Program-made: the position numbers and the translations under genes
NCBI GenBank assembly: GCA_023659935.1
Contig: JAGXOK010000003.1
Location: 1-47,820 of the forward strand
DNA length: 47,820 bases
Reading direction: 5' to 3'
Source: Candidatus Aenigmarchaeota archaeon LH_S6
GTDB lineage: Archaea > Aenigmatarchaeota > Aenigmatarchaeia > QMZS01
Notes under the pieces: model-generated
Database searches by the model: none
What the model was told of the DNA's origin: nothing
What the model saw: only the letters and a program-made list of their open reading frames with translations
Shown here: positions 5,568 to 34,509 of the stretch, piece after piece
How the letters are laid out: every line of letters starts with the position of its first letter
Numbering within the stretch: the first letter of the stretch is position 1

Positions 5568-5596
5568 AATACTTCTATTATTTATATAATCCATAA

Positions 5597-6070: not shown

Positions 6071-6144
6071 AATAGATTCTACTAACTCAATTAATCTATA
6101 AATTAATATTCAACTAAAACTCCAGTTTTGTCAAAATAAATCTT

Positions 6145-6654
6145 TTACCCAACATAAACTATCACCTCCACAAAATCTTTATTTAAAGTTGCAATTCTTT
6201 TTATGTGCGCAGTTGTACCAAGTTTTTTACCTACAGGCTTACATTTAATCACATTTGTATTATTTAGATAATTAATTTCAACAACTAAATTCTCACTTTC
6301 TAAACCAAAAGAATCTCTAAGTTTTTGAATTTTTGTTAAATCTGTTGTTGAACTACATATTTTCTCAAATTCATTAATTTTTGTTGAATTTAGAGAGTAG
6401 GGCTCAGAGGCAAGACCTATTCTTTCAAAATTAGTTTCATTCCAATTAGCAGGATAACCTTTATCCTTGATTAACAGTTCAGAAATAGAATATGCCTTAG
6501 AATACAAAATATCAGACTGGATATCGTTACTGTAAGTAGGATAAAAACTTATAATAGTATAAACCAAATAAATTGAGAGAGAGATAAACAAAATAGTACT
6601 GATAATAAAGTAAATATTTACCTGTCCCTTAAAATTATTGTCCTTTTCTATCAT
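6145..6654 (-). CDS. Class III signal peptide (type IV pilin-like) protein, GYPxNWN family
   Basis: The track start is a TTG. The ATG at 6654 lies 1 nt after the upstream stop and gives MIEKDNNFKG/QVNIYFIISTILFISLSIYLVY (KGQ followed by a hydrophobic helix). It is a paralog of 44492..44974, sharing GYP(A/K)NWN..N...IGL. Confidence 0.6.
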   Translation of the reverse strand: MIEKDNNFKGQVNIYFIISTILFISLSIYLVYTIISFYPTYSNDIQSDILYSKAYSISELLIKDKGYPANWNETNFERIGLASEPYSLNSTKINEFEKICSSTTDLTKIQKLRDSFGLESENLVVEINYLNNTNVIKCKPVGKKLGTTAHIKRIATLNKDFVEVIVYVG

Positions 6655-6655
6655 C

Positions 6656-8564: not shown

Positions 8565-8981
8565 ATGGGAGTCTTAAGTTTCAGAATAAAAAAAATAGAA
8601 GGTGATGTTGGAGAGAGAAGAACAGGGGAGTTAAAAGTAAGTTCTTCTCCACCAAGGATAAAAAACGTAATTGAAAGGGAAGTTGGATTGGCAGGAAATA
8701 AAACAAAGGTTCTTGCAATTGATTTTGAATGCAAAACAAAATATGAGCCAATAAATGCGAAAATAAACATTTATGGGGAGGTATTGTACACAGATGAGAG
8801 ACAAAAAGAAATTCTTAAAAAGTGGGAGAAAGAAAAGAAAATTGATGAAAAGGTTGGTTTGTATCTTTTAAATTATATTTTTAAAAGATATGCTGTCCAG
8901 TGTATAAAAATTGCGGATGATTTGCAGTTACCTGCACCAGTCAAATTACCTGAATTTGTGAAGAAGGGAGAAGGTCAATAA
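8565..8981 (+). CDS. Hypothetical protein (weak SecB-like resemblance)
   Basis: ATG start, 138 aa, no competing ORF apart from an antisense artifact. The C-terminal LLNYIFKRYAVQCIKIADDLQLPAPVKLPEF recalls the SecB C-terminal helix and strand. I recognise no firm family. Confidence 0.5.
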   Translation: MGVLSFRIKKIEGDVGERRTGELKVSSSPPRIKNVIEREVGLAGNKTKVLAIDFECKTKYEPINAKINIYGEVLYTDERQKEILKKWEKEKKIDEKVGLYLLNYIFKRYAVQCIKIADDLQLPAPVKLPEFVKKGEGQ

Positions 8982-10143: not shown

Positions 10144-12396
10144 ATGAGATTAAGTCTCTCCTTCTCAGAAATCAGGAATAAAGATGTTCCAAAAGTTGGT
10201 GGGAAGAATGCAAGTCTTGGGGAGATGTATTCACAGTTGAAAAATAGAGGGATAAGGGTTCCGAGTGGTTTTGCTTTAACAAGTGAATCCTATGACTACT
10301 TTATCAGGGAAAACAGACTTGACAGGGAAATTAAAGAAACTCTTTCTGATTTAGATGTAAAAAATATTAAAAATTTAAGAGAAAAAGGAAAGAGAGTCAG
10401 AGAATTAATCTTAAAATCAAAAATCCCTAAAAAACTAGAAAAAGAAATTTTAGAGAGTTACAAAAAACTTTGCAGAGAATATAATAAAGAAATATCGGTT
10501 GCTGTGAGGAGTTCTGCAACTGCAGAGGATTTGCCAGAAGCAAGTTTTGCGGGGGCACAGGAAACTTATTTAAATGTAAGAGGAGAGAAAGAATTATTAA
10601 AGGCTATTGTGAAATGTTACTCTTCTCTTTTCACTGACAGAGCAGTTTCCTATAGAAAGGAGAAAGGTTTTGGACAATTTTCTGTTAAATTATCAGTAGG
10701 AATTCAGAAGATGGTCAGGAGTGATGTTGCATGTTCTGGAGTAATGTTTACTCTGGATCCAAACACAGGTTTTAGAAATGTTGTTTCTATTGAAGGAAGT
10801 TATGGGCTTGGAGAATATGTTGTAAAAGGAATTGTAAAACCTGATTCATTTTTTGTATTTAAGCCAACAGGAAAAGTTATCAATAAGGAAATTGGAGACA
10901 AGAAAGTTAAATTAGTTTTTTCAAAAACAGGAACAAAACAGGAGAAAATCAAGTCAAAAGATAAAAACAGATTTATTCTGACCGACAAAGAAGTAGAAGA
11001 ACTTGCGAGTTATGCAATTAAAATTGAAAAATATTATAAAAAACCGATGGATATAGAATTTGCAAAAGATGGAGAAGACAAAAAATTATATATTGTTCAG
11101 GCAAGACCAGAAACAGTCCATACAAAGAAAAAAGAAATTAGTAAATATACTTTAGTTAAAAAAACCAAAAAATTGGCAGAAGGTCTCGCTATTGGTAGGA
11201 AAATATCCTCAGGAAAAGTACATATTATTAAAAATATAAACCAGATAGAAGAATTTAAACAGGGAGAAATTCTTGTTGCAAGGCAGACAAACCCTGATTG
11301 GGAGCCGATAATGAAAATAGCTTCTGGAATTATAACTGAGCAGGGAGGAAGTACAAGTCATGCCTCCATCGTTTCAAGAGAGTTAGGTATCCCCTGCATC
11401 GTGGGAGCACAAAACACAATGAAAAAGTTAAGAAATGGGCAGAAAGTAACAATAGATTGTACAAGTTCAAAAGGAATTGTCTGGGAAGGAAAATTAAATT
11501 ATAAAATCAAAAAAATTAACATTGAAAAGTTACCTAAAACAAAAACAAAAGTTATGCTAATTCTTGGAACTCCTGAAGAATCTTTTGATTTGGCTTTTTT
11601 GCAACCTGATGGAATTGGTCTGGTAAGGATAGAATATATTATAACTAACTGGATAAAAATGCATCCTCTTTACGCAATAGAAAAGAAAAAACAGGAATTT
11701 TATGTTCAGAAACTTGCAGAAGGAATTGGAATGCTTGCCGCCTCAGTTTATCCAAATCAAATTATAGTAAGATTTTCTGATTTCAAGACAAATGAGTACA
11801 GGAATTTACTTGGTGGAAAAAAATATGAGCCAGTAGAAAACAATCCAATGCTTGGTTGGAGAGGGGCATCGAGATATTCAGACGAAAAATTTAAACCCGC
11901 TTTTTTGTTAGAGAGTGAAGCAATAAAAAAAGTCAGGGAGGAAATGGGCTTAAAAAATGTTGATGTAATGGTTCCCTTTTGTAGAACAATTAAAGAAGCA
12001 AAAGATGTTTTAAAAATTTTAAGTGAGAATAAGAGGAAATTAAAAGTTTATGTAATGGCAGAAATTCCTTCAAATATTATTCTTGCAGAGGAATTTTCAA
12101 AATTGTTTGATGGTTTCTCAATTGGCTCGAACGATTTAACCCAGTTGACTTTAGGGATAGATAGAGATAATCCAACTCTTGGTTTTGATGAAAGAAACGA
12201 GGCAGTGAAAAAATTAATATCTGAGTTAATCAGATTTGCACATAAGAATAAAAAACCAGTTGGAATCTGTGGTCAGGCCCCATCAAAATACACTGAATAT
12301 GCAAAATTTTTGTTGGATAATAAAATAGATTCCATCTCTGTTAATCCTGATGTTTTCTTGGAGACAAAAATTAGGGTTTCAAAAATGGAGAAATAG
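10144..12396 (+). CDS. ppsA: Phosphoenolpyruvate synthase (pyruvate, water dikinase)
   Basis: 750 aa. N-terminal ATP-grasp region (VGGKNASLGEM), phosphohistidine swivel motif GGSTSHASIVSRELGIPCIVG, and C-terminal PEP-utilising barrel (GFSIGSNDLTQLTLGIDRD). Confidence 0.95.
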   Translation: MRLSLSFSEIRNKDVPKVGGKNASLGEMYSQLKNRGIRVPSGFALTSESYDYFIRENRLDREIKETLSDLDVKNIKNLREKGKRVRELILKSKIPKKLEKEILESYKKLCREYNKEISVAVRSSATAEDLPEASFAGAQETYLNVRGEKELLKAIVKCYSSLFTDRAVSYRKEKGFGQFSVKLSVGIQKMVRSDVACSGVMFTLDPNTGFRNVVSIEGSYGLGEYVVKGIVKPDSFFVFKPTGKVINKEIGDKKVKLVFSKTGTKQEKIKSKDKNRFILTDKEVEELASYAIKIEKYYKKPMDIEFAKDGEDKKLYIVQARPETVHTKKKEISKYTLVKKTKKLAEGLAIGRKISSGKVHIIKNINQIEEFKQGEILVARQTNPDWEPIMKIASGIITEQGGSTSHASIVSRELGIPCIVGAQNTMKKLRNGQKVTIDCTSSKGIVWEGKLNYKIKKINIEKLPKTKTKVMLILGTPEESFDLAFLQPDGIGLVRIEYIITNWIKMHPLYAIEKKKQEFYVQKLAEGIGMLAASVYPNQIIVRFSDFKTNEYRNLLGGKKYEPVENNPMLGWRGASRYSDEKFKPAFLLESEAIKKVREEMGLKNVDVMVPFCRTIKEAKDVLKILSENKRKLKVYVMAEIPSNIILAEEFSKLFDGFSIGSNDLTQLTLGIDRDNPTLGFDERNEAVKKLISELIRFAHKNKKPVGICGQAPSKYTEYAKFLLDNKIDSISVNPDVFLETKIRVSKMEK

Positions 12397-12530: not shown

Positions 12531-12689
12531 CTATGATGGACTAAAAAGTTTACCTAACCAATCTCCACCCACCACTAATATATTTCCTAAACCACTTAAA
12601 ATTCCATGCTGGATTAGAGCATAAATAACCAAACCAAGTACTATCAGAAAAAGTATAATTCCAAAAACAACTTTCAATGGCATCTCCAT
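12531..12689 (-). CDS. Small hydrophobic protein (52 aa), below the ORF-track threshold
   Basis: Hand translation gives MEMPLKVVFGIILFLIVLGLVIYALIQHGILSGLGNILVVGGDWLGKLFSPS. It sits 41 nt downstream of, and co-oriented with, the pilin-like operon. Confidence 0.3.
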   Translation of the reverse strand: MEMPLKVVFGIILFLIVLGLVIYALIQHGILSGLGNILVVGGDWLGKLFSPS

Positions 12690-12729: not shown

Positions 12730-14328
12730 TTAAGATGGTTTATATTTTACAATATATTGGGAAGTTGCTACTAATTTGTTAGGGGGACAATCTTCAATAA
12801 AATCAATTTTGAGACGAGAATACTGTTCATTATTCCAAGTAGTTGAACTAGTTCCCGTGCACTTAGTATCCAAAGTTACATCCCAGGTATATCCTTCAAT
12901 TACTGTTTCTTTTATTGTTTTATTAATTTCCTCTTCTACATTATTTTGAAATTCATCACAATTCAACTCATTAAAGTGATAAGTAAAATCCTTAAATTTG
13001 TTATTTAATCGTTCTATATACCTAGACAAATTAAAATTAATATTTATTCCACCAAGTCCATATTCATAACCACTAGACTCTGCATAAATTGTTAATCTTC
13101 CATTAACTCTTGGAACTTTTGTTAGGTCACAAAGGTCTAAATCACATTTTTCAATTTTGACACCATTAAACTCAAAAAAATAATCTGGCACTCCCTGCAC
13201 CTCTAAAGTTTTGTGCTTTTCTCCACAGTTTAGGTCTATTTTTTTCCATTTTTTAGGTCTTAGATCATCATCTAAAATTATTTCAATATTATCCTGATTT
13301 TTTAGACATTTGTATTCTTTCTCTTCACTTTTGATTTTGTAGCATTTATATTCTCTACTTGATAGGGAGTTTGTTGAACCTTCTGGAGAACAAAGTGGTC
13401 CAGAAGATAAGCAGGAACCACAAAGACCTGAAACACAATCTTCTCCACTTCCACAGTCTGCTCCTTCTGAACAATGATTTTCTAAACTACCACAAACAAA
13501 ATTACTGAATTCTTCTGAAAAAGCTATTGCTCCCTTTCCTTTTTGACTTAGAATTAAAGTTACTGTAACAGGTTTATCTTCCATATCCCTACAATCACAA
13601 TCAGAACCTCCGCAGGAAATTGGTATTTTTAGAGAGAAATCAAAATCCTCACACTCAATTATATCCTCTAAAACTTCATTTAGTTTTTGTGTTAATCCAG
13701 CTTTAAGTTCATTGGAATTTAATTTTTGAAATTCATATCTACCCATATTTGTAAAGAAATTGTCCGCACAACTATAAACTTCTCCTAAATCCATAAAGTC
13801 AAATTCTGTTCTTATTCTTCTTGTTGTATTTATCTCATTTTTTACATCTTCGCCAAACATTTTGCTACTTAAATAAATCCTATAAATATAATTCCAGGTT
13901 AAATTTTTATTTGTATAATCATAAGATAAACTACTACCAGAACCAGAAGTGTTTATAATAGAAGCATTAACTTTTGCTCCTTCCAAAACATAGTTTGAGG
14001 CGAAATAATCATTTGCTGCTTCTCCCAACCTTTCACTGAATAAATCAATAAAACGTGAATAATCTCCCCAACTATCATTCCATGAAATAGGTTCTTCTTG
14101 AATATTACTAAAAAATCTGTCTGAATCCTCTTCTATTGTTCTCTTCAGATTTGTCTCTGTGTGGGTAAAAGAAGATAATAATTCAGAAAACTGAATTTCT
14201 GGCAGAGTATGATAATAGATTGGAGTTTCTCCAACAGAGCCCATTAAAATAACAAATAAACCGGCAGCTACTACAGTAAGAATCATCATAAGTCCTTGAA
14301 TTCCCCCTTTCATTTTTTTAATTCTCAT
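12730..14328 (-). CDS. Large pilin-like (class III signal peptide-like) Cys-rich secreted protein
   Basis: N-terminus MRIKKMKGG/IQGLMMILTVVAAGLFVILMG. Cys-knot-like motif HCSEGADCGSGEDCVSGLCGSC. The N-terminus is paralogous to that of 14331..15362. Confidence 0.6.
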   Translation of the reverse strand: MRIKKMKGGIQGLMMILTVVAAGLFVILMGSVGETPIYYHTLPEIQFSELLSSFTHTETNLKRTIEEDSDRFFSNIQEEPISWNDSWGDYSRFIDLFSERLGEAANDYFASNYVLEGAKVNASIINTSGSGSSLSYDYTNKNLTWNYIYRIYLSSKMFGEDVKNEINTTRRIRTEFDFMDLGEVYSCADNFFTNMGRYEFQKLNSNELKAGLTQKLNEVLEDIIECEDFDFSLKIPISCGGSDCDCRDMEDKPVTVTLILSQKGKGAIAFSEEFSNFVCGSLENHCSEGADCGSGEDCVSGLCGSCLSSGPLCSPEGSTNSLSSREYKCYKIKSEEKEYKCLKNQDNIEIILDDDLRPKKWKKIDLNCGEKHKTLEVQGVPDYFFEFNGVKIEKCDLDLCDLTKVPRVNGRLTIYAESSGYEYGLGGININFNLSRYIERLNNKFKDFTYHFNELNCDEFQNNVEEEINKTIKETVIEGYTWDVTLDTKCTGTSSTTWNNEQYSRLKIDFIEDCPPNKLVATSQYIVKYKPS

Positions 14329-14330
14329 AA

Positions 14331-15362
14331 CTATGTTAACTTAACACTCAATTTATTATCTTTATTACTCCACTCATTCTTACCATCATCTATTACAGTA
14401 AATGTAATTTTATAATCGCCTTTTTTTGTGTAGGTATGACTGAATTCATGGTAAGAATCAGTTGGAGAAAATTTTGTATCATAACTACTGTCATCATAGT
14501 CTAAAATTATTTCATCTATATCAAAATCATCTGTTACATTTATAAAAAATTCTACTTCTGTATCCTCCTCAAATCCCTTTTCAATTGTTTTATCCCACTC
14601 ACTTGTCCCTTCAAATCTTACACCAATATCTTCTACTTCTGGTGGATTATTTTTCAAGCAGAGTCTTGTCCCTTGCTCCTCTACTTTGCATTTTTCTACA
14701 TTGCTACCTCCTCCACATACAACAAGTTTACACGGACCTACTCCACAAGGGTCATTATTACATTCGCTTCTTCCTGGACCTGTCAGATAAGCACTACATT
14801 CTTTAATATCCCCACAACAATAAACAAACTTAATCCTCATATTTTTTGTTTCTTTTGAAAAAATTGGCATATCTTTGTAAAAGCAATTATAAGGATATTC
14901 TTCTGGAAAACTTACTTTCAAACCTTCCAGTTTATCTCTTGGAAGACCCAAAGAAATTATTAACCCTTTTTTGTCTTTAATAATGTAAGAATTATCTCGT
15001 TTTTTTGTCTTTTCTTCTAGTTTATCCATCAATTCATTATATTCCGTTAAATCAACCTCAGAAGAATATCTATCAACAAATTCCTTTCTACTCAAAACTT
15101 CTTTTTTACTATACTCCATTTTTGCCAACTCATTCAAAGTATTCCAACTCTGTGGAGAATAAGAAAGATAAAATAAAACAGAAGAAGGAAAATAATTCAT
15201 CCACCTATACTCTGTATAAGTTTTTACTTCTATTGGCTCTCCAACTAAAACACTTCTGAAATAAAAACCTATTGTCAGGGTAATGACAAATAGCCCAACA
15301 AAAATAAGAATTACTGGTATAACAGACCATTCGATTCCCCCTCTCATTTTTTTTGTTTTCAT
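14331..15362 (-). CDS. Pilin-like protein with Cys-rich region and C-terminal PKD-like domain
   Basis: N-terminus MKTKKMRGG/IEWSVIPVILIFVGLFVITL. The C-terminus ...FSHTYTKKGDYKITFTVIDDGKNEW shows the PKD pattern. Its start forms an ATGA overlap with the upstream gene. Confidence 0.6.
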   Translation of the reverse strand: MKTKKMRGGIEWSVIPVILIFVGLFVITLTIGFYFRSVLVGEPIEVKTYTEYRWMNYFPSSVLFYLSYSPQSWNTLNELAKMEYSKKEVLSRKEFVDRYSSEVDLTEYNELMDKLEEKTKKRDNSYIIKDKKGLIISLGLPRDKLEGLKVSFPEEYPYNCFYKDMPIFSKETKNMRIKFVYCCGDIKECSAYLTGPGRSECNNDPCGVGPCKLVVCGGGSNVEKCKVEEQGTRLCLKNNPPEVEDIGVRFEGTSEWDKTIEKGFEEDTEVEFFINVTDDFDIDEIILDYDDSSYDTKFSPTDSYHEFSHTYTKKGDYKITFTVIDDGKNEWSNKDNKLSVKLT

Positions 15363-17413
15363 ATTAAGATATCTATTCTAGAATCTTTCAAACTATATTC
15401 TATTGTTTTATCCTTCACAGGATAATGTGCAACAATAAAAGCAGATTCAGCATTGTTGTAAGAATACTCTCCTCTGCAAACTTTTTGTGTAATATTAAAA
15501 ACATAATTTTTATCATCAAACACAGCAACATTTGAAGAATTTAAATTTGGCCAGAGTTTCATCTTTGGGCAAAAACCAGTATCTTCTTCACATACAAATA
15601 ATCCTTTTTCAGTTTTTGTCAAATTTTCGCAACAGAGACCACTTGCATTTATTTTCCATGTTATTTCTGCATTTTCATTTGCTGAACAATTAATAGTATC
15701 TATTTCTTCCCCATTAAAAGTTCTGTTTACCAAAATCACAGGTAAGCATTCTGACATTTCTTCTCTTGAAGGCCAGGATTGGTTTAAAACTTCTTGGCAA
15801 GTATATAAACCTTCACTTACGGAAGGAGGATTTTCTAAATAATTTGGAGAGCAGAAACTCCAGTATTCTTCAGAACATTTAGCACATTCATTAGCAACAC
15901 AATGAGTTTCTACACAATCTCCTGCAACTGTGCAATTAAAAATTCCTGGCCAAGAAGAGCAAGCGGATACAATCGCATAAGTTTCTTTATCTTCAATAAT
16001 TTCATCAATACTTTTATCCTCTAATTTTTCTGTTTCAACAACAACATATTTTATACCAATTGCATCTTTTGGGAGTTCATCAAAAAGATGCATTTGTGAC
16101 TTTGCAAAATCGCAAGCCATATTATGACCACAATCTTTAGTTCTAATCTTAGGGTCGGTACAATGATAATTTATACATTGACCTTCACTAAGATACCAAG
16201 GTAAATTTGTTTCACATCTATTTATACAAAAATCTTCTGCTTTATCCTCACCCCAACTTTCCCTTACATTTTCAACAAGAAGGAAAAATTCCAGGTCGTA
16301 TAGTCCACCAGGCCCAGTTATAGTATGTTTATATGCTTCCTTTGGCCTGCAGATTTTTGCTGACAAATTGCTTTCATTTACCACTCGCCTTGGAATCCTT
16401 GTCTTTAATTCACAATCTCCCTCTCCTTTACTTGAGGGAATAACTGAGAGAACATTTGTTGTATTATTAAAATCCCATTTGAAACCACATTTAGCGTAAA
16501 CTTCTTTTGTTGTCATCCATTCAATAGCTTCTTCTTTTTTTCCTTTTAACCAGTTATAAAGGTCACCAACTAAAGGTATACTACCAATTGCTTCATCTAT
16601 CCAAGAATCTATATCTCCAATTGCACCCCCAATTACAGGTAATTTTAAAATTATCTTTTCTGTAAGAATATCTTTAATTAATGTTTTAGATTTTCTCTCG
16701 TTAGTACCACCATTTACAAGGCAACCTTCCGGATAAGGACCTAATCGATAAAAAACATGAGGCTTTCCTTTAACTCCAACCTGATAAATTCCATCTCTTA
16801 ATTGTGTTGCCAAATTAGTTGTTAACCCCGTAACCATTGCGCCAATTTCAACATTATCCTTATCTGCAACAAAGGTTGTCAGAGGACAAATAGAACTTAA
16901 TTTGTTATGTGGCAATTCTCCGGGCTTTCCCTCGATAAAATCTATATTTCCGCTTTTTGTAATATAATTCTGCAACGTTTCGTCTAATTTTTTATAATCT
17001 TTTTCAGATATTTTTAGATTTCCACATTTCTTATAAACAGATTTACTTTCTGGAGGAACATACAAAGAATAAACATCGCTTCCATCAGAGATAAGCATAA
17101 AATAGTCAGAATCTGGTAAAAAGAATTTAGACATATTTTCAAAAATAGAATTTGCTGTTTCTTCCCTTCCACCTGTAGTTTTCCACTCTTTTAATAAAGT
17201 TTTATTAAAAATATTTGGATAAACAGTTAAATTATTCCAGAGAGAAAGCATATAAGCAAGGTCGCAGGCTGTTACCTTTTCTGGAGTCTCGGTTGGAATT
17301 GTCTGAAAATTAAACCAAAACATCGCAATCATAGCCATTATCCCGACAAATATAGCCAGAGTTATTATATAACCAATCATATTTGGAGGTAAAGTTAAAA
17401 GACCTCGTCTCAT
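15359..17413 (-). CDS. Large pilin-like/signal-anchored Cys-rich secreted protein (684 aa)
   Basis: N-terminus MRRG/LLTLPPNMIGYIITLAIFVGIMAMIAMF. The C-terminal half is very Cys-rich. ATGA overlaps occur at both ends (17410-17413 and 15359-15362). Confidence 0.6.
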   Translation of the reverse strand: MRRGLLTLPPNMIGYIITLAIFVGIMAMIAMFWFNFQTIPTETPEKVTACDLAYMLSLWNNLTVYPNIFNKTLLKEWKTTGGREETANSIFENMSKFFLPDSDYFMLISDGSDVYSLYVPPESKSVYKKCGNLKISEKDYKKLDETLQNYITKSGNIDFIEGKPGELPHNKLSSICPLTTFVADKDNVEIGAMVTGLTTNLATQLRDGIYQVGVKGKPHVFYRLGPYPEGCLVNGGTNERKSKTLIKDILTEKIILKLPVIGGAIGDIDSWIDEAIGSIPLVGDLYNWLKGKKEEAIEWMTTKEVYAKCGFKWDFNNTTNVLSVIPSSKGEGDCELKTRIPRRVVNESNLSAKICRPKEAYKHTITGPGGLYDLEFFLLVENVRESWGEDKAEDFCINRCETNLPWYLSEGQCINYHCTDPKIRTKDCGHNMACDFAKSQMHLFDELPKDAIGIKYVVVETEKLEDKSIDEIIEDKETYAIVSACSSWPGIFNCTVAGDCVETHCVANECAKCSEEYWSFCSPNYLENPPSVSEGLYTCQEVLNQSWPSREEMSECLPVILVNRTFNGEEIDTINCSANENAEITWKINASGLCCENLTKTEKGLFVCEEDTGFCPKMKLWPNLNSSNVAVFDDKNYVFNITQKVCRGEYSYNNAESAFIVAHYPVKDKTIEYSLKDSRIDILI

Positions 17414-17880
17414 TTTTCACTTGTTGGCCCAATTATATAAATAGAGTTTTCATCTACTTTCTCAAAACAGAGAAAAACCTCACAGGGTGTTGTATAACCA
17501 TCAACATTTAAAACCTCCCAAGAACTTTTAGTATATTCATATAAATCCATATTCCCAACCAAAGAATCTGACAGATATGCTCCCTCATTAAAACGCTTGT
17601 TTTTAGGACCCCATATTTCTATGTAAGTTGGATGAATAGTTACTCGATTACAATTTCTTAAACTCACACAGGTGTAAGTTTTAACAGGGGCAGATTGCAT
17701 TAAAAACAAAGTATTTTTTATTTGCGCAATTGTATTTATCTTTAATTCACTCATCCTCTGTGTTGCTAAACCCATTCCCATCTGCTGCCACAAACCTAAA
17801 ATTAAAATCGCAAAAATCAAACCGAAAATAAAAAAGAAATATTCTATTTCTATTCCTTTCTTTTCACTTTTGTTAAGCAT
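17410..17880 (-). CDS. Class III signal peptide (pilin-like) protein
   Basis: MLNKSEKKG/IEIEYFFFIFGLIFAILILG. The G-x-x-x-EY motif followed by a hydrophobic helix resembles the Epd-type QxSxEY pilin N-terminus. Confidence 0.6.
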   Translation of the reverse strand: MLNKSEKKGIEIEYFFFIFGLIFAILILGLWQQMGMGLATQRMSELKINTIAQIKNTLFLMQSAPVKTYTCVSLRNCNRVTIHPTYIEIWGPKNKRFNEGAYLSDSLVGNMDLYEYTKSSWEVLNVDGYTTPCEVFLCFEKVDENSIYIIGPTSEK

Positions 17881-17912
17881 AATATAATTAATTCTTAATA
17901 TTTAATTTGAGT

Positions 17913-18092
17913 ATGGGGAAGGGTTCTATTTTAGCTATTGTTATTATAATAGTCTTATTTCTCATATTATTCTTAATAGGTAGCAATATTGGTTCTTTTA
18001 GTTTTGATGTTTCAAATATACCGATATTAGGTTCTATACAAGATTTTATTGTTGATAAGTGGATTACAGTTTATAGGTTTGCACATGGGTGA
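17913..18092 (+). CDS. Doubtful small ORF with a pilin-like N-terminus; its 3' end lies inside the duplicated IS flank
   Basis: MGKG/SILAIVIIIVLFLILFLIG... The last 16 codons and the stop are encoded by repeat copy 18044..18280. It runs on the opposite strand to the operon. Confidence 0.25.
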   Translation: MGKGSILAIVIIIVLFLILFLIGSNIGSFSFDVSNIPILGSIQDFIVDKWITVYRFAHG

Positions 18093-18280
18093 ATTACCCC
18101 CAACAAGTTAAGAGGCTTCCTGCTTCTCCGGGAGGCTAACCTTATTTAAGAGGTGAACTCCTCTCTCCACAAACTTATATTCCGAGTCCTGCCGTAGTGA
18201 TTTATTTTTGATGTTAATTGAGGCATTTAGGTCTCTAGATATTATTAACCCACAATTAGGACATCTATGTGTTCTTATAG
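18044..18280. repeat. Copy 1 of an exact 237-bp direct repeat (TnpB 3' coding end plus 64 nt of downstream flank)
   Basis: Character-by-character comparison with 18318..18554 found no mismatch. The offset is 274 bp, with a 37-bp unique spacer at 18281..18317. Confidence 0.9.
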
Positions 18281-18317
18281 ATAGTGTTATTTGTATAATA
18301 CACCTTCCCTGACTACT

Positions 18318-18554
18318 TTTTATTGTTGATAAGTGGATTACAGTTTATAGGTTTGCACATGGGTGAATTACCCCCAACAAGTTAAGAGGCTTCCTGCTTC
18401 TCCGGGAGGCTAACCTTATTTAAGAGGTGAACTCCTCTCTCCACAAACTTATATTCCGAGTCCTGCCGTAGTGATTTATTTTTGATGTTAATTGAGGCAT
18501 TTAGGTCTCTAGATATTATTAACCCACAATTAGGACATCTATGTGTTCTTATAG
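18318..18554. repeat. Copy 2 of the exact 237-bp direct repeat (part of the longer TnpB remnant)
   Basis: Identical to 18044..18280. It covers tnpB codons up to the stop at 18382-18384 plus the 64-nt downstream flank. Confidence 0.9.
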
Positions 18555-19071
18555 CTAGAGTTTTTGGAACTTTACAACTACACTGACTACAATCTATTGT
18601 TGTTCCTGCTGGTATAACCTGCTTAACTAACCCACCAGATTCTTCCTCTTTGTAGGTTAGCAATTCAGCAAATTTACCCCAACAGACATCTAAAATATGT
18701 TTTGCTAAATAGGGATGATGAACCATTCCTGTTATATTTAAGTTTTCTATTGCAATATATCCATACTGTTGTGTAAGGTGATAACTTAATTTATGTAGAA
18801 AATCTAATCTTTGGTTTGTTAGGTTTTCATAATCCCTTGCTAATTTCACTCTTTGTTTACTCCTATTAATAGACCTCTTCTTCTTTTTGCTTAATCTTCT
18901 GTGTTCTCTTTTGAGTTTCCTTTCTGTTTTTTTAAGAAATCTTGGATTATCAATAACAGTTCCATCTGATAAAGTAGCAAAATTCTCCCTCCTGAAATAG
19001 TTTGAAAATGCTTTGTTTATCCAAGGCAATTCATTCACCTTGGTTTTCTTGCCTTTGGTTAAGTATAAAGG
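18382..19071 (-). pseudogene. tnpB: 5'-truncated IS200/IS605-family TnpB (OrfB) RNA-guided nuclease remnant
   Basis: Retains NFATLSDGTVIDNPRFLKK..., the RuvC-II region YIAIENLNI, the zinc finger CSQC...CPNC and RuvC-III SRDLNASINI. The WED/REC half and the RuvC-I GIDLG Asp are missing: the frame opens only at the TAA just upstream of 19071. No tnpA is present. Confidence 0.85.
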
Positions 19072-19133
19072 TTATTTAAGTTTGGGGTTTTTAATCGTTG
19101 TGAAAATTTTTTTACAGAATTTCACTCTGATAA

Positions 19134-19652
19134 TTAATCATATACTCTCTTGACCAAAGTTGAGCCACAGGCGTTTCTTATTAGGTTATATTGTTCAAAT
19201 TCGTTTTTTTTGGCAAAATTTGGGCTCTTGTCTGCCCACTTCTCCCTTAATTTGTCTATTCCAGATGTTCTACAGTCAGATTTAAGATATTTCATTGTTT
19301 CCAGGTCTTTTTCTAAAATTTCGGGTTTTGTCCAAGGATTTTGTGGCGGATTCTCTTCACTTTCCACACAGTTTGAGTACCATCTCGAACATTCTCTCTC
19401 AACTTCATCATAAACAAAAATAGTCTCTACCTCATTCATAAACTTCTCACATGTATTAACAAATTTTTCTGTCCCATACTTTACAACTTCTTCCGCAGTA
19501 AAAACCAAGGGATTTGCCATTCTCTCATATAACCCTTTTTTATCTGTTATTACTTTAATCATACCAAGTGCAGAGGTAATAACAAAAAGTAAAACTACAA
19601 CAAGAATAACTAATAAAACAGCATTTTTTGCACTTCCTTTCATCATTTGCAT
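19134..19652 (-). CDS. Pilin-like (class III signal peptide-like) protein
   Basis: MQMMKG/SAKNAVLLVILVVVLLFVITSALG. Several in-frame ATGs overlap the upstream stop (19643-19645), so the exact start is uncertain. Confidence 0.55.
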   Translation of the reverse strand: MQMMKGSAKNAVLLVILVVVLLFVITSALGMIKVITDKKGLYERMANPLVFTAEEVVKYGTEKFVNTCEKFMNEVETIFVYDEVERECSRWYSNCVESEENPPQNPWTKPEILEKDLETMKYLKSDCRTSGIDKLREKWADKSPNFAKKNEFEQYNLIRNACGSTLVKRVYD

Positions 19653-19906
19653 TTTGACATAAGAGCCCCAAGATTCTTACAATAAGATTTGCATTCTGAT
19701 ATTGTATTACATTCTGATATTAAACGGGAAGGAATTGGTTCTTCACAGTTCCACATTTCACAAACTGTCTTTAATTCAGTCTTATTTTGAAAATCAAATA
19801 TATATTGGCCCTGAAATTTAAAAATCAAAAAGCCACTCATAATAAAAACTAGAGTTACTAATATCAAAATTCCAAACAATATATTCCATTGCACACCTTT
19901 TATCAT
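19643..19906 (-). CDS. Small pilin-like Cys-rich protein (87 aa)
   Basis: MIKG/VQWNILFGILILVTLVFIMSG, followed by a Cys-rich tail (CEMWNCEE...CNTISECKSYCKNLG). Confidence 0.55.
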   Translation of the reverse strand: MIKGVQWNILFGILILVTLVFIMSGFLIFKFQGQYIFDFQNKTELKTVCEMWNCEEPIPSRLISECNTISECKSYCKNLGALMSKCK

Positions 19907-19908
19907 AA

Positions 19909-20073
19909 TTAAGATAATATTCCTATAAATGGACTAAGCACACTTTGAATTATTTCAGTGATCTTATCTGTAATAGGTAAAAATCCTCCAGTTATAATCA
20001 TCATTGCTACAACAAAAATAATAATTAAAGCCACTATACCAAGAACTGGTGAGATATGGAAATCCCCTTTCAT
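19909..20073 (-). CDS. Small pilin-like protein (54 aa), below the ORF-track threshold
   Basis: Hand translation gives MKG/DFHISPVLGIVALIIIFVVAMMIITGGFLPITDKITEIIQSVLSPFIGILS. It begins 3 nt after the stop of 20077..22638 and ends 2 nt before the next ATG. Confidence 0.5.
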   Translation of the reverse strand: MKGDFHISPVLGIVALIIIFVVAMMIITGGFLPITDKITEIIQSVLSPFIGILS

Positions 20074-20076
20074 AAT

Positions 20077-22638
20077 CTATTCATACAAATCTTTTATCTC
20101 CTCAATTATATTGTTCATTTCAAAAGATTTATTAAATTCTGAAGTAGCACAAATTTTACTCCAATCTCCCTTACAAGGATAGGTCCAGGGATTTCCTGAA
20201 GACTTGTCCCAGTCAACAATGTAAATCGGATTTGACCAGACTTCATCATAAACATTTCTCCATACATATGGGTTGTCTACTGAAACTATATTTTCTTCTT
20301 TAGTCAAATTCACAAATTTATCATAACCTACCTCAAATTTTTCTGGTCCAGTTATTGTATTAGTAATAAAGTCTTTAACTTCAGGAGGACTGCTAAATAA
20401 AGTGGCGTTTCCACCTGTTGGCTCAGAAATATTATAAAATAAATCTTTTAACTGGCTACTTATCCCTGTACTCCGGTTACCCCATAAACCAAAGATTGTC
20501 ACATTATTTTCTATTGCTGCATCCGCTGCTTTTTTTACAGAGGAACTATCATTTGTAGAACAAGAGACACCCCCACAAAAAGAGAATTCATCACTAGCAA
20601 CAAACAAAATTTTTGATAATATATCTTCTCTCCAAGAATGATTTTTTACAGCCCATTCTGCTCCTGGACCCCAACTTTCCATATAACAGTTACTATCACT
20701 ACAATCAAGAGACAAACCCAAATCTGAATTTATATCCGAACAATTGAGTAAAACATAAGGACAAGATGGGGTAACACCTATACGTTTACTTTTTTCACCA
20801 AGAGCATATAAAGTAATATTTAATTTGTAATCCTCTTCCTCAAGTTCTACTTTTATATCATCTATAATATCACATAAAGTATCCCACTCACCATCCATAC
20901 TCCCACTTGTATCAGTAACAAAAACCAAATCCACAGTTTTCTGGAAAGTTATAAACTCTGGCTTATTGTACTGTCTCGCAGCCCATTCACAACCTTCCTG
21001 GCATTTTGTAATTTTTGTTCCATTTCCATAATACCCATCCCTTGAAGCGCAGAAAGTTTTGCACAGAACAAAAGGATTATCTAACTCTGAATCTGTTCTG
21101 TGGGTTGTTGAGCAGTTACATCTTTTGTCACAATCATTTTCATCTTTGCATTTATTATCTTCTCCTTTACACCCTATATCACTATATTCACAAACTTCAT
21201 CACAGCACTGACTATAACAACAATAATTATTTGGATTATAGCAACTTTCTCCTGGATGAGGTTCTTTTGTTGTAATTGTTGCCACAGCCCAAGCAAGACC
21301 TCTGTAATCTGGTTTTAAATCTAAATTACCAATTTTAAAAGTTGAATAATTTCCCGTCTTTATCTGGAAGGTTGATTTCTCTATTTTAAGGAATTTTTCA
21401 CAACCATGTTTTTGGTCATCACCTGTTAAAACCGATTCTTCCTCACAGAAGAGATAATTTGCCAGGTCAAACTCTTTATCTTTAAAAGTATCATTACAAT
21501 AATAACAACCGCATTTATCTTCACAATCTTTAGCATTTCCTGTTTCAACAAAACAGTCCCTGTAGCAGTTCATCTCTTTTCCTTTTTTACAACCAAGAAT
21601 ACAGTTTCCAGAATCTCCCTCAAAATCTTCACTATTACAATAGTTTTCACAGATTTTTGAAGAATCTTCATCATAATATCTCTGTTCTGTGTAGCAATCA
21701 CATTCTATTCTGCAATCACTTTCAGTACCTGCAGTTCTACAATCTTTATAACAATCCCAATTATCCCCAATATAACAACTTCTTTCTCTTCCAGCAATTT
21801 TGTTAGATGGCTGGTCATCAAGAAAAGAAACAAAATTCTTACAACCCTCTTTTTTATCATGATTTAAATTATCACAATCATCAGCTTTTTCAGCATTCAA
21901 GTTTGCAAATTTACAACCTTCTTCGCAACTTATTTGTTCTTTACCTTCATAATCATCACCACATTCTTCTTTGCACCTTGATAAAGGAGAAGTAGAATTA
22001 AAAATCCTTGCACTAACTTTTTCAACAGTTTTTTCTCCTCTTAATTTGATTCCACCATACAAAGAAAGTTTTGGTTTTTTTCCGGGTTCAACAACAATAA
22101 CAGAAGGCTGCCCTCTTATTTCTACAAAACTCTGTTTTTCCAAATCTTTCCCGATACTTGATTTATATTCCGTTCCAAAATCAAGACTCCTTCTTTCTGT
22201 TAAAAAATCTTTTCCTTCCCATCCTGGTACATCTTTATCCAAACAAAGACAGCCTGGTCTGAGGAAGTTATAGCAGTAGCCATTTAACTTGATTCCATGA
22301 GGTAAAGAGTCATTAATATCTTGCCATTCTATTTCTTTATCCTCGCCAGAAAAACCCTGCTTTTTTTCTACAATGAAACAATTATCCCACATAGTTTTGT
22401 TTTCGGTTTTTAAATTTCCTTTTAGATTCTTAAAATCGGTTTTATCTATATCAGGGGGAATAAAACAACCCAAAGAAACTCTGTCAGAAACAATAATATC
22501 TGTTCTTTCTCTAACATCCTCCAAAAAAGGGATATCTTCAGATTTATTTTTAATTTCACCCCAGAAATAAACACATATAACCAAGACTGTAAGAGCAAAA
22601 ACTACTGAAAACAAAATCAAGAAAGTTGTCCGTTTCAT
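20077..22638 (-). CDS. Large Cys-rich secreted protein with C-terminal von Willebrand factor A (vWA) domain
   Basis: N-terminal signal anchor MKRTTFLILFSVVFALTVLVICVYFW. A long CxxC/Cys-rich middle section. vWA MIDAS motif VDLVFVTDTSGSMDGEW, then ...ILFVASDEFS... Its start forms an ATGA overlap with 22635..22826. Confidence 0.75.
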   Translation of the reverse strand: MKRTTFLILFSVVFALTVLVICVYFWGEIKNKSEDIPFLEDVRERTDIIVSDRVSLGCFIPPDIDKTDFKNLKGNLKTENKTMWDNCFIVEKKQGFSGEDKEIEWQDINDSLPHGIKLNGYCYNFLRPGCLCLDKDVPGWEGKDFLTERRSLDFGTEYKSSIGKDLEKQSFVEIRGQPSVIVVEPGKKPKLSLYGGIKLRGEKTVEKVSARIFNSTSPLSRCKEECGDDYEGKEQISCEEGCKFANLNAEKADDCDNLNHDKKEGCKNFVSFLDDQPSNKIAGRERSCYIGDNWDCYKDCRTAGTESDCRIECDCYTEQRYYDEDSSKICENYCNSEDFEGDSGNCILGCKKGKEMNCYRDCFVETGNAKDCEDKCGCYYCNDTFKDKEFDLANYLFCEEESVLTGDDQKHGCEKFLKIEKSTFQIKTGNYSTFKIGNLDLKPDYRGLAWAVATITTKEPHPGESCYNPNNYCCYSQCCDEVCEYSDIGCKGEDNKCKDENDCDKRCNCSTTHRTDSELDNPFVLCKTFCASRDGYYGNGTKITKCQEGCEWAARQYNKPEFITFQKTVDLVFVTDTSGSMDGEWDTLCDIIDDIKVELEEEDYKLNITLYALGEKSKRIGVTPSCPYVLLNCSDINSDLGLSLDCSDSNCYMESWGPGAEWAVKNHSWREDILSKILFVASDEFSFCGGVSCSTNDSSSVKKAADAAIENNVTIFGLWGNRSTGISSQLKDLFYNISEPTGGNATLFSSPPEVKDFITNTITGPEKFEVGYDKFVNLTKEENIVSVDNPYVWRNVYDEVWSNPIYIVDWDKSSGNPWTYPCKGDWSKICATSEFNKSFEMNNIIEEIKDLYE

Positions 22639-22826
22639 GTGAAGAGAAGGCTTGACATAGCGCCTTTGGTGAGAGAAAGAAATACAGAGACGATATTATT
22701 AAGAAAATCAAAAGCGAGTTGTCCTTTCCCTGTCATAAGAGCAAGTAATATAATGAGAGGTAATAAACAAATAATAAAATAAATAACATATTTAGGGATA
22801 TCTATTCCTTTCATTTTGTATTCCAT
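22635..22826 (-). CDS. Small pilin-like membrane protein, first gene of the operon
   Basis: MEYKMKG/IDIPKYVIYFIICLLPLIILLAL, followed by a second KGQLAFDFL motif. Confidence 0.5.
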   Translation of the reverse strand: MEYKMKGIDIPKYVIYFIICLLPLIILLALMTGKGQLAFDFLNNIVSVFLSLTKGAMSSLLFT

Positions 22827-23421: not shown

Positions 23422-26400
23422 CTAAACCTTAATTTCTACATACATTTGTCCAATCATAGATTTACATAAAACTCCTGTTATTGTATTTTCACCCTCCTTA
23501 AGTTCCTTATTACTGAAAATATAAATATCTCCTGTTTCATCTCTTATTTTATAAATAAACTCTTCTTTGGAGGTCTTCTGAATAAATGAAACTTCACCTT
23601 TGAGTGTTACTTCTCTATTAACAAATTTAGGATCACTTATCATTTGTTTTATTTTGAGTTTTTTCCTTTTTATATTAACTTTATCTTTTAGTTTTATTTT
23701 TCCAAATTTATGTTTTAATTTTGTTACCAAACCTTTTAAGTATCTAAAAAAAGAAACAGGTAAAGATATAATCCAGATTAACAAAGCAGTTGGAACTAAT
23801 TTTTCTTTTAAAAGAGATTCCTTATTTTCTTTTTTCCCTCTTATTTTCCCCCTAACCTCAAAAATCGTTTGTTGGGTTTTGACTAAAATATCTTTAAATG
23901 TTTTTTCATTAATTTTCCTTAAAAAATATTTTTTTTCTGTTTCTTTTCTTGAATTTACAAGTCCCTGCTTTTTTTCTTCCAAGCTCCTTATTTCCCTACT
24001 AAGTCTAAAATGAGGATAAATAATTTGAGTTATTAAATAAGAGAATATTAAGGTAAGAATCACTAGTAAAATTAAGCTCCATTTGTTTTCGAGTAGGAAC
24101 TTTTTTATTTTTAAGGTCAAAAGTTTGTTCTCTATATAACCAACTTTTAAGTTAATTTCATCTGTCTGTTTTTTTAGGTTATCTAGACTATCTGTTTTTA
24201 TGCTTAAAGTTGAATTCTCAATAAGTGTTTTTATTTCTCTTATTTTTATCTCTAAATCAGTAACATCAACTCCAGTTTCTTTATATTTCTTTATTTCTTC
24301 TTCTAATTTTGGTAATTTATTTTTAATTGATTTTAAATAAGAAATAGAAGGATTTTCTTTAACAACTATTCTCAAATTTTCTTCTTTCTCTACTCCCTCA
24401 CTTTCTACCTTAAACTTTATTGAATACTCTCCTGCCCCTTGAGAAAGATTGGGATGAACTAAAATTGGTAATACTTTTGTTTCCTTTTTCTCAAGTTCTA
24501 AACTCTTGGTATAATTTAAATCACAACATTCTTTCTCTGCTGAAATTGTTAAAGAAAGTTTTGCTCCTCCTATATTCTCAAGTTTTATTGAATCTTTTTT
24601 TGTTTTTCCCTGGTCAATTTCTAGTATTTCTTGATCAATTGAAATTCTAAAATCTTTTTCTGGTATACAAACAGGATTATAAACACATTGTTTTTCTGCT
24701 GAACAACCAGCTGGATTACATACTCTTGTTTGATACTTCTCTGTTGCGGAGCAGTTAGATAAACCACAGCCTTTATCTTTCCACTCTGTGCAGGTACAAT
24801 TAGTTATTCCTGGAACACCACCATTGCCCCCAGTAGTGGTCTCACCGCCTGTTTTGCTTTCCCCCTCTGGGGTTTTGGTTGTTGTGAACATCCTCCCTGT
24901 ATACCCAAGATTTCCACCAAAATAAGAACTTGAATAAACAAAAATTTCAAAGTTCTCGTTTGGAGCTGTAAAGATAGAACTGCCTTTATAACGTCCTGTT
25001 TCTGAATCAAAAGTTAATCTTGCATAATCTTTAGTGCACTTTGGACAATAAGCAGTCACAGCAGCACCCTCTACAACTTCACTGTGCATATCTACTACAG
25101 AGACATTCATATCTACTCCTGTATTTGGAGGATAGTACCCTGTTTCCGGGTAAATAATTTCTGTAGGAATTTCTTCAGAGACAACAAAACTCTCATCGTA
25201 TTCTCCTTTATTTCCATTTTTCTTTACATTTACATAAATTATATAATCTGTAGAAGCAGCACTTGTTTTGTCAGCTCCAGGCTCATCTTCTGGTTCTATC
25301 TGATAACTTCCAAAGTTTGTAATAGTATTGTTAACTAAGGTAACATTCTCACCATCCTTGTTAAGTATTAAAGTTAGATTAAATCCTTCTACAGATAAAT
25401 TTCTAACATCTTTTACAGATACATTGAAATCTATTTTATCTCCTTTGTTGTAAGGATTGTAGGTAAGTGTAACTGTTTCATATTTATTTGTTACATTAAA
25501 TTCCTCTGTTGTTGTATTTGTACACTTACCAGCAAGATTACAAGAATAAATTTTAAATTCGTAAGTTCCATTTTCAGTTGTTCCATTAAAGTTTATCTCA
25601 TACAAATTATTTGGGTTTAAAGTTGCAGAGATATTATTCTTGGTAGTATTATACGGCCATGTTACTTCAACAGAAACATTCTTTATCGCTGTTTCATTTT
25701 CTGTTGTATTTATTACAAATTTATTTATATTATTCAAATTTGTCTTATTATAATAGTTAAATTTGTTTATTTCTGGAGGGGTATTATCATTTTGAATTAC
25801 GCTAATATTTATACTTTTGCTTTTGCTTTCATTCAGATTTGGAGAATAAGCTGTTATATTTATCGTTGTAGTTCCATTCGCTGTTGAATCAATTGGGAAA
25901 AATACTCCCTTACCCTGATAATTGTCTTTCCATAAAATATCCCCTATATTACTTGTTTTATTTGTTGAGTTTATAATGATTTCATTTTCTATGGATATGT
26001 TTACAGATATATTTAATAAATCACCCTTGTTAGGAACAATAAATATTGGGAGATCGTAACTTGTGTTTTCTACAAGAGTTCTGTCTTCAGCATTTATTGA
26101 AATGTTTCCATAAGATACATTAAAGTTCGCCTGCTCTGTTTTATTGATTTTTGAACTTAATATTACTGTTGTATTTACAGAGTAATTTCCAGAAAGATCA
26201 ATATTTGAATAATTTCCATTATAAAGATAGATGTTGTTGGTCTCATTTTCAAAATTAAAATTTATAGTTTCAATTGAATTATCTGGTTTTGAAATTTTTG
26301 CTTCCACTTTAGAGATTGCGGAAGCATTTCCTGATATATTTGCGGAAAAAATTTGGGTTTTATTTATTTCTATTGATTGATTAGAGAGGGAAGAACTCAG

Positions 26401-32728: not shown

Positions 32729-32832
32729 AACGAAAATTGTTAATTTTGGTTAATTTCGCACATCTCTAAAGTGAAAAAATAAAAAAGGTTTTTTCGGATT
32801 GTTCCGTACTCTCCTGACTGGTTAAAGTTGGT

Positions 32833-34486: not shown

Positions 34487-34509
34487 TTTATTTTCTTTTA
34501 GTTTTATTT

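Follow-up and report, generated by a model that had tools for sequence, protein, structure and literature searches.

A conserved gene cluster of Candidatus Aenigmarchaeota that may encode the subunits of a type IV filament

The DNA considered here is a stretch of 47,820 nucleotides from the DPANN archaeon Candidatus Aenigmarchaeota archaeon LH_S6 (contig JAGXOK010000003.1, positions 1 to 47,820; this whole stretch is called the window below), and its subject is a cluster of minus-strand genes that we believe probably encodes the subunits of a type IV filament. A sequence-only reading of the window had described nine back-to-back genes at 12730-22826 with pilin-type N-termini as a candidate undescribed adhesive filament or tip complex, possibly for attachment to a host cell if the organism were a DPANN episymbiont. 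The organism does belong to DPANN, being a member of Ca. Aenigmarchaeota, as are all named records that carry the cluster. All nine open reading frames (ORFs) were found at the coordinates given, and they are real genes. With a tenth, smaller gene they fall into block A (g63-g853-g54-g87-g172) and block B (g156-g684-g343-g532-g50), listed here in gene order, where a slash outside brackets in a motif follows the Gly in question:

g63, 22635-22826, minus strand: small membrane protein of 63 aa, MEYKMKG/IDIP..., opens block A
g853, 20077-22638, minus strand: protein of 853 aa with 54 Cys and a von Willebrand factor A (vWA) domain with a metal-ion-dependent adhesion site (MIDAS)
g54, 19909-20073, minus strand: pilin-like protein of 54 aa, MKG/DFHISPVLG...
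g87, 19643-19906, minus strand: 87 aa, MIKG/VQWN..., pilin-like helix followed by a 6-Cys mini-domain
g172, 19134-19652, minus strand: pilin-like protein of 172 aa, ..MKG/SAKNAVLLV..., closes block A
g156, 17410-17880, minus strand: pilin-like protein of 156 aa, ..KKG/IEIEYFFFIFG..., opens block B, the best conserved
g684, 15359-17413, minus strand: Cys-rich, pilin-like protein of 684 aa, MRRG/LLTLPP..., with a variable C-terminal extension
g343, 14331-15362, minus strand: pilin-like protein of 343 aa, ..MRGG/IEWSV..., with a C-terminal, sub-threshold PKD-like module
g532, 12730-14328, minus strand: Cys-rich, pilin-like protein of 532 aa, ..MKGG/IQGLMM...
g50, 12531-12683, minus strand: small membrane protein of 50-52 aa without KG, MEMPLKVVFGII..., ends block B

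The 4-nt overlaps reported at 22635-22638, 17410-17413 and 15359-15362 were correct, and gaps of 2-3 nt were rightly given for g853/g54, g54/g87 and g343/g532; between g87 and g172 there is a 10-nt overlap, which shrinks to 1 nt if translation of g172 begins at the Met of MKG, as in its orthologues. "Back-to-back" does not hold for the whole run, which is broken by 1253 nt between g172 and g156, an interval that holds a TnpB remnant, a tandem duplication and a divergent plus-strand ORF (described below). The N-terminal hydrophobic helix noted earlier is present in 9/9 proteins and is the only hydrophobic segment in each of them. The cluster products are also rich in Cys, as had been remarked, with 2.6-6.9% as compared with 0.84% in the neighbouring non-surface genes; the exceptions are g54, which has none, and g63 (1.6%), a protein that carries an internal GKGQLAFDFL segment.

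Conserved synteny in related genomes had been suggested as a check, and at least 10 independent contigs of Candidatus Aenigmarchaeota kept the gene order, with proteins 28-85% identical (L002/L003, L004/L005/L013, L006, L007, L008, L009, L010 and L011, with fragments in L012 and L014-L016 and a rearranged version in L019/L020). Homologues of g853 and g156, 12 clusters each, came from Candidatus Aenigmarchaeota/Aenigmatarchaeota assemblies only. Across the window and its relatives, block A encodes proteins of ~55 aa, ~800 aa (the vWA protein), 54 aa, ~90 aa and ~170 aa, and block B proteins of ~160, 684-1063, 343-496, 515-567 and 50 aa; the two blocks are contiguous in L008/L009 and ~9 kb apart in L004/L005, and the rearranged L019/L020 version holds g87-like, g172-like, g156-like and g684-like genes at 28-32% identity. 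The smallest genes keep their places as well, since the vWA gene has a g63 orthologue of 51-63 aa ahead of it in L004, L006, L007, L010, L011 and L014, g54 orthologues with an invariant G followed by D/E come directly after it in 7 other loci, and g50 is called in L001 and L006 and present in L007, L008 and L009. Ahead of block A most relatives encode two more proteins, one of 533-1197 aa led by MKG and one of 46-47 aa with MKKG; the window has neither. The place of the former is occupied in the window by the gene for a 2823-aa surface protein and an NDK gene.

The cluster genes are fast-evolving, as is typical for exposed surface proteins. Measured against L007, which is 83-98% identical to the window, the ratio of non-synonymous to synonymous substitution rates (dN/dS) was 0.44-0.91 for the nine genes, the value for g87 being 0.91, and 0.15 for g50, with NDK (0.04) and PEP synthase (0.10) as controls. 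Comparison of eight of the families by hhalign found similarity confined to the first ~30 residues, so that the families are not detectable paralogues past the N-terminus; such a limit is what would be expected for pilins.

It is at the N-terminus that the families resemble one another most suggestively. In 8/9 window proteins [K/R]G or [K/R]GG stands right before the hydrophobic helix, and the chance probability of finding this in 7/9 is p ~1e-7 at a G frequency of 6.5%, or 3e-4 at a generous p = 0.2. The Gly is conserved across orthologues in 7 families (g54, g87, g172, g156, g684, g343 and g532) in which the neighbouring residues vary, and [K/R]G is kept in these down to 28-32% identity. 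A relaxed rule that places [K/R]G or [K/R]GG at most 10 residues before the hydrophobic core describes 7/9 families with conservation, and the patterns of the individual families, apart from g156, are as follows:

g54 family: M[K/R/E]G[D/E]
g87 family: KG in 9/10 distinct orthologue N-termini, the exception being L006, beside a TnpB insertion
g172 family: MKG in 10/10 orthologues, and KG/Q in the 28%-identical homologue of L019
g684 family: M[K/R](R)G[L/V/S][L/I][T/S/P]L
g343 family: [K/R/E]GG[I/L].E in 8 orthologues
g532 family: MKG, invariant

The neighbouring Sec-type surface proteins, namely the 2823-aa giant and a protein resembling Peptidase_M73, have no [K/R]G. Leaders as short as those above are compatible with a known enzyme, as PibD cleaves leaders of only 3 residues (PMC4187195).

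The g156 family adds a second conserved position. G9 and E13, the latter at +4, are invariant in 13 sequences, and distant members keep both residues within otherwise different surroundings (KG/LSVEY, KG/LISEY, KG/LSAEI and KG/LEHEV). Type IV pilins are characterised by a conserved acidic residue at +5, close to where the mature helix begins. The AlphaFold2 model of g156, built from a 13-sequence alignment with a predicted local distance difference test (pLDDT) score of 73, has a continuous helix at 4-63 followed by 9 beta strands; cut at G9, the modelled protein would have a 54-residue alpha-1 and the "lollipop" layout of a pilin. In size and layout g54, for which no Pfam or NCBIfam family was found, is like a Flp/EpdE-type pilin, and by that analogy it is a candidate filament subunit.

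Among the large proteins, the g853 family has 12 relatives in Aenigmarchaeota at 39-84% identity with many invariant Cys, and its DTSGS motif at 577-581 is conserved. The Pfam VWA match is weak (E = 0.031), and the AlphaFold2 model reaches a pLDDT of 52 overall, with ~70-85 over ~568-760, where beta and alpha elements alternate, and low confidence in the C-terminal region. Searched with Foldseek, this vWA region matched integrin beta-I/alpha-I domains (E = 2e-5 to 1e-3, target TM-score up to 0.60). We consider the vWA/MIDAS domain that had been recognised by its DTSGS motif to be confirmed by the conservation of that motif and the match of the modelled fold. No PilY1/PilC beta-propeller (IPR008707) or archaeal DUF2341 was matched by Pfam in g853 or the other cluster proteins. 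The PKD-like domain of the earlier description fared less well, as in g343 at 262-335 it is sub-threshold in Pfam (PKD_4 24.3 bits against a 27-bit cut-off, E = 3e-5; PKD 22.8 against 23.5) and is suggestive only. The C-terminal module of g343 is a swapped one, since MopE-like Cys repeats take the same position in the L010 orthologue. In the g684 family, orthologues range over 708-1063 aa, and additional C-terminal modules are present or absent as clean in-frame units: at 85% identity, the protein of L007 (14476-17376) has 966 aa as against 684 aa in the window. High conservation in this family covers M1, G4 and the N-terminal 125 residues, and a 32%-identical homologue in L019 keeps KG. In g532 residues 26-73, after the helix, are almost invariant, and in g684, g532 and g343 alike the N-terminal parts are somewhat better conserved than the C-terminal ones. 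Searches of the PDB with single sequences and family profiles of g853, g684 and g532 gave nothing usable, and g684 and g532 had no PDB relative even with family profiles.

Outside the coordinates of the nine genes, 4.2 kb from the cluster, lies a gene pair of a kind that could serve the assembly of such proteins, with a divergent neighbour:

6656-8484, minus strand: split FlaJ/TadC/UpsF-type platform of two T2SSF genes (285 + 324 aa), both with Pfam T2SSF
8565-8981, plus strand: divergent gene for a 138-aa soluble protein with no family assignment, beside the platform pair in the window and in L018

The two halves match the N- and C-terminal halves of the NCBIfam ArlJ, UpsF and BasF models with about equal scores, and the pair is probably an assembly platform. 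In L004/L005 it lies ~0.9 kb downstream of block A, with one VTT-domain gene between them. A homologue of the 138-aa protein (40% identity, E = 2e-39) is found inside the g172-g156-g684 cluster in L019 and L020, a placement that provides a second, independent link between cluster and platform locus and makes the 138-aa protein a candidate for a dedicated cytoplasmic partner or regulator of the filament system.

The platform pair belongs to a unit at 1-8484 that recurs in L017 and L018 with no ATPase adjacent. Downstream of the pair, this unit holds a gene for a 174-aa KG/Q pilin-like protein, an archaeosortase-like gene (a 157-aa exosortase/archaeosortase-family protein, TIGR04178, pacearchaeosortase-like) and a gene for a giant secreted protein, rich in Cys, which begins at 5567 and continues past the edge of the window; L001 gives its length as 2100 aa.

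Taking these observations together, we propose at a rough probability of 0.6 that the cluster is an Aenigmarchaeota-specific set of subunits of a type IV filament, either a pilus or a short pseudopilus, comprising core pilins, modular pilins and a vWA accessory protein. The proposal rests on real, syntenic genes, on a conserved G (joined in g156 by a conserved E at +4) and one N-terminal helix per product, on the vWA fold, the pilin-shaped g156 model and a platform close by, and on fast evolution; cleavage, polymerisation, subunit order, tip location, adhesion and any role in host contact are only inferred. In our model, the pre-proteins would first enter the membrane with the N-terminus inside. 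A class III signal peptidase of the PibD/FlaK type would then cut after the invariant Gly, removing leaders down to M-K-G. The split T2SSF platform at 6656-8484 and an unlinked PilB/FlaI-type ATPase would polymerise the subunits via their hydrophobic N-terminal helices, with g54, g87, g172 and g156 forming the filament core or a priming complex. The modular pilins g684, g343 and g532 would be held in the filament by their conserved N-terminal parts, and their variable, disulfide-stabilised C-terminal modules would be displayed, probably at the tip. Finally, g853, which has no class III site, may act with the minor pilins as an accessory adhesin or anchor similar to PilY1 or TadG.

A number of results weigh against this proposal. 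The class III layout had been ascribed to all nine proteins, and a class-III-like N-terminus is conserved in 7 families but not in the remaining two: in the g853 family, plainly of signal-anchor type in every orthologue, the motif is never there (MKRTTF / MNRSSF / MIKIKF), and in the g63 family KG is not conserved, being limited to the close relatives that are the window, L007 and L006. The strict FlaFind-type pattern, a form of check that had been recommended, matches some members of two families (4/7 orthologues of g684 and 3/5 of g532) and fails in 7/9 families, because 4-8 partly polar or charged residues lie between the Gly and the hydrophobic core; both positive controls, the MAKG/QVSLEY and KLKG/QALSF proteins of the window, match it. 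Archaellins have a similar spacer between the Gly and the hydrophobic core. Pfam Pilin_N (PF07790), Class_IIIsignal (PF04021) and the NCBIfam pilin models found none of the nine window proteins at E <= 1, and the Flp_Fap and TadE models matched no cluster protein; the Flp motif G/XXXXEY is one residue out of register in g156 (G/IEIEY, E +4, Y +5), and the exact G/QVSLEY motif is found only in a separate 143-aa protein at 39684-40115. The recommended search for a pilin family with hidden Markov models (HMMs) thus came back empty-handed, as the Pfam and NCBIfam scans of the nine proteins and their larger orthologues yielded only sub-threshold vWA, PKD and Pilin_N matches, the last in the g684 orthologue of L010 (E = 0.021, below the cut-off). 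The pilin and class III models are, however, insensitive here, because the positive-control MAKGQVSLEY protein itself scores only E = 0.59. An exhaustive HMM search with the g156 family profile against 1.84 billion representatives found 10 clusters only and no bridge to a known pilin family. Foldseek found no significant pilin or archaellin for the g156 model in the PDB (best E = 0.06, to OB-like folds), and for this reason the fold supports the architecture and not family membership. The platform pair is unlinked from the cluster in L002, L008, L009 and L011, and neither a T2SSE-type assembly ATPase nor a Peptidase_A24 was found in the window or in any fetched flank. Beside the platform genes of the long contigs L017 and L018, no assembly ATPase or prepilin peptidase was found either; the only T2SSE match, in L018, is an ATPase fused to PIN that lies 7 kb from the platform pair, and we did not accept it as the assembly ATPase, since we take its architecture to be that of a widespread archaeal family of PilT-like proteins without ties to pili.

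Much of this would also be seen if the cluster were an operon of type II signal-anchor surface proteins that are neither cleaved nor polymerised and that form a membrane-tethered adhesion or envelope complex, in which [K/R]G would be a positive-inside feature at the start of a helix. The single N-terminal transmembrane segment of every protein, the polar or charged residues after the Gly with the attendant failure of the strict pattern, the empty pilin HMM and fold searches, the flanks without ATPase or peptidase, and g853 as a clear plain anchor all speak for it. We nevertheless find this account doubtful, while still deserving to be taken seriously, for a Gly is not needed for a positive-inside arrangement and yet is invariant in 7 families at 28-85% identity, the Glu at +4 of g156 is invariant within the helix start, and adjoining Sec- or anchor-type proteins do without KG. 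Nor does it account for the recurrence of the cluster near T2SSF platform genes and their shared 138-aa neighbour, or for a g156 model that consists of a 60-residue helix and a beta head. A different possibility accepts class III processing but not a filament, and sees, as in the Sulfolobus bindosome, large surface proteins that would be attached to the envelope through a pilin-like N-terminus or through a very short pseudopilus and would serve in binding or uptake. The sugar-binding proteins of Sulfolobus are indeed large non-filament class III proteins (PMC4371748, PMC4858521), BasF matches the platform halves about as well as UpsF and ArlJ do, and four of the products are large (343-853 aa). 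Solute-binding or enzyme domains, however, were detected in no cluster product, several subunits have the small size of pilins, including the well-conserved one of 156 aa, and the vWA and PKD-like modules point to adhesion, so that we regard this possibility as quite unlikely. That the proteins are ordinary Sec/signal peptidase I (SPase I) secreted proteins, or that the small ORFs are spurious, we regard as very unlikely indeed. AT-rich DNA does give many short ORFs, and g853, g63, g50 and the plus-strand ORF are without a conserved KG; but the hydrophobic segments, at ~20-30 residues, exceed the usual length of SPase I h-regions, and there is no evident conserved AxA site; every ORF, even those of 50-63 aa, keeps its position across loci, and g63 and g50 show few non-synonymous changes against L007. 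Conservation largely refutes this last explanation.

A more specific version of the filament proposal can be imagined, which at present we think improbable. It holds that the cluster encodes an organelle with which Aenigmarchaeota attach to hosts and which serves this purpose alone, a short type IV filament carrying at its tip a hetero-oligomer made up of a MIDAS vWA protein and the three giant, disulfide-rich modular pilins; rapid swapping of the C-terminal modules would set host specificity, and the 3-residue MKG leaders would be cut by a PibD-like enzyme distinct from the one acting on KGQ pilins. If true, it would give this DPANN phylum its first defined machinery for cell contact.

The filament proposal is best judged next to the systems already described. 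The sequence-only reading had contrasted the large cluster proteins with known archaeal pilins, which it called small. The contrast was overstated, as large proteins with class III signals, adhesins of the PilY kind, Cys-rich components and loci with 5 or more minor pilins are already known for archaeal type IV pili (PMC4858521, PMC4371748; see also bioRxiv 10.64898/2026.04.22.720090). Pilin islands of DPANN "dark matter" beside TadC have also been noted (PMC6393860). Archaeal System 1, reported from methanogens and from some DPANN, combines a split platform with numerous diverse pilins and with accessories that resemble adhesins (bioRxiv 10.64898/2026.04.22.720090; PMC4858521). The cluster is like System 1, the Epd pilus of Methanococcus maripaludis (clade 1 of Makarova 2016), in that the platform is split into two genes and the locus holds many diverse pilin-like proteins with class-III-like signals and large adhesin-like accessory proteins; the Epd pilus itself has at least 5 predicted minor pilins and a very small major pilin. 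Unlike the Epd sites, which are KGQ with a Glu at +5 and are served by a dedicated EppA, those of the cluster have I, D, V, S, L or G after KG and no Gln at +1, and the canonical KGQ is found only in the other two pilin loci of the window. Moreover, the candidate adhesins of the cluster lack the DUF2341/PilY-like domain, the ATPase and peptidase are not linked, and no sequence homology to Epd proteins was detected.

In its combination of small pilin-like proteins with a large vWA protein that is a non-pilin or pseudopilin, the cluster recalls the PilY1 tip complex of type IVa pili (T4aP) and the Flp-TadE-TadF-TadG set of the Tad system: g54 resembles Flp in size and layout, g853 is like PilY1 in having no class III signal, and g156 shares with bacterial pilins a conserved Glu near the mature N-terminus, although at +4 and not at +5. 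It differs from both in having no PilY1 beta-propeller and no TadE or Flp HMM match, in belonging to an archaeal envelope without secretin, and in its three giant pilin-like proteins, which have no bacterial counterpart. Modular pilins were described in Streptococcus sanguinis, where PilB carries a vWA and PilC a lectin module, in a survey that covered bacteria only (PMC8179133). The cluster proteins likewise join a pilin N-terminus to bulky, lineage-variable modules, such as the g684 extension and the PKD- or MopE-like modules of g343, for which display at the tip is proposed; unlike that of S. sanguinis PilB, the vWA domain of the cluster sits on a protein without a class III site. In the 4E/4G loci of Pyrobaculum and Thermoproteus almost all components have multiple conserved Cys (PMC4858521), and the cluster resembles these loci in its many fast-evolving pilin-like components and its large signal-peptide proteins, which may be adhesins or minor pilins. 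It recalls the Sulfolobus bindosome in its large proteins with class-III-like N-termini, the large class III proteins of the bindosome being no part of a filament. Both systems come from other phyla, with no sequence similarity found, and have ATPase, platform and MinD-like genes beside the pilins, and the cluster has no substrate-binding domains. Our literature search found no paper on this Aenigmarchaeota cluster, and its protein families are orphans. The earlier description as "undescribed" therefore holds for the families and not for the kind of system, because archaeal loci with minor pilins, large adhesins and Cys-rich parts have been described.

The 1253-nt interval between the blocks contains the following features:

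18382-19038, minus strand: 5'-truncated TnpB (IS200/IS605-type RNA-guided nuclease), Pfam OrfB_IS605 and Cas12f1-like_TNB
17907-18092, plus strand: divergent small ORF for a membrane protein of 59-61 aa, MGKGSILAIV..., between the blocks

The TnpB remnant interrupts the cluster and is outside the system. Its 218 aa cover positions 185-359 of 360 of the NCBIfam TnpB profile, and no recognised RNA accompanies it, because an Rfam search of the whole window gave no match. A 274-nt tandem duplication (18044-18317 + 18318-18591, 96% identical, span 18044-18591) covers the 3' end of TnpB and 64 nt downstream of it, reaching into the 3' end of the plus-strand ORF. The latter is a gene call in L001 and is found at 95% identity in L007, and divergent 53-aa genes without KG occupy the same position in L002, L004 and L010; whether it is a member of the cluster is uncertain. 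L007 has a more decayed TnpB remnant at the same site, and L006 has an unrelated full-length TnpB elsewhere in the cluster, where g54 and the start of g87 are lost. We rejected a mobile-element or viral origin of the cluster, because flanking housekeeping genes (PEP synthase) are conserved across L006-L009 and because the window and L006 acquired their unrelated TnpB copies independently. In L006 the PEP synthase orthologue that follows the cluster (21149-22388) bears an intein with a LAGLIDADG homing endonuclease, and the copy in the window (10144-12396) has no intein.

Further surface proteins are encoded upstream of the cluster. The 2823-aa protein (23422-31893, minus strand) has a Sec-type signal, Ig-like domains, C-terminal transmembrane segments and 183 N-glycosylation sequons (6.5 per 100 aa). 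At 32369-33447 (minus strand) a DDE transposase fragment (119 aa) adjoins a camelysin/TasA-like Peptidase_M73 protein (204 aa, Sec-type signal). A second pilin-like cluster lies at 39684-44974. It comprises the 143-aa plus-strand protein at 39684-40115 with a canonical Epd/Flp-type MAKG/QVSLEY, a 160-aa protein with KLKG/QALSFDFL (44974), a 404-aa protein with MKKG/VLFSL and an 884-aa protein with NKG/IVFSLD (41875-44529). The 404-aa and 884-aa proteins have 4.5-5.1 N-glycosylation sequons per 100 aa, and the latter, which has no Pfam match, contains a DLSGS MIDAS-like motif; if its vWA domain is real, it would be a true pilin-vWA fusion. Paralogy between the two clusters was rejected, as BLASTP was not significant. 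The KGQ sites of the window agree with the KGQ[VIL] class III sites tabulated previously (Table 1 of PMC4371748), and a type IV filament system with a class III signal peptidase is therefore expected in the genome. Beside this second cluster, at 45003-46610 (minus strand), are two paralogous Cys-rich proteins of 196 and 323 aa, 56-60% identical over ~160-180 aa, with repeated CxEGEKxCSxNNL motifs and C-terminal transmembrane anchors. The region 33821-39637 is densely set with genes for KaiC-like ATPases (three full-length, one fused to a small Ras/Arf-like GTPase, and weaker KaiC-like ORFs) and also encodes a Roadblock/LC7 protein, which together with the GTPase makes a pair similar to MglA/MglB. 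A regulatory role in archaeal type IV pili has been proposed for ATPases of the KaiC family (PMC4858521).

We know of no cultured representative of Aenigmarchaeota, and how DPANN attach to surfaces or hosts is, to our knowledge, largely unknown. The cluster leaves the picture of type IV filament function unchanged, but as a concrete, conserved and fast-evolving set of 10-12 surface proteins it offers targets for study and a defined candidate attachment apparatus for an uncultured DPANN phylum. It also adds to the catalogue of archaeal type IV filaments orphan families that current HMMs and FlaFind-type rules miss. With a relaxed criterion based on conservation, which asks for a Gly that is invariant among orthologues where the helix begins, many such "dark-matter" pilins could be recovered.

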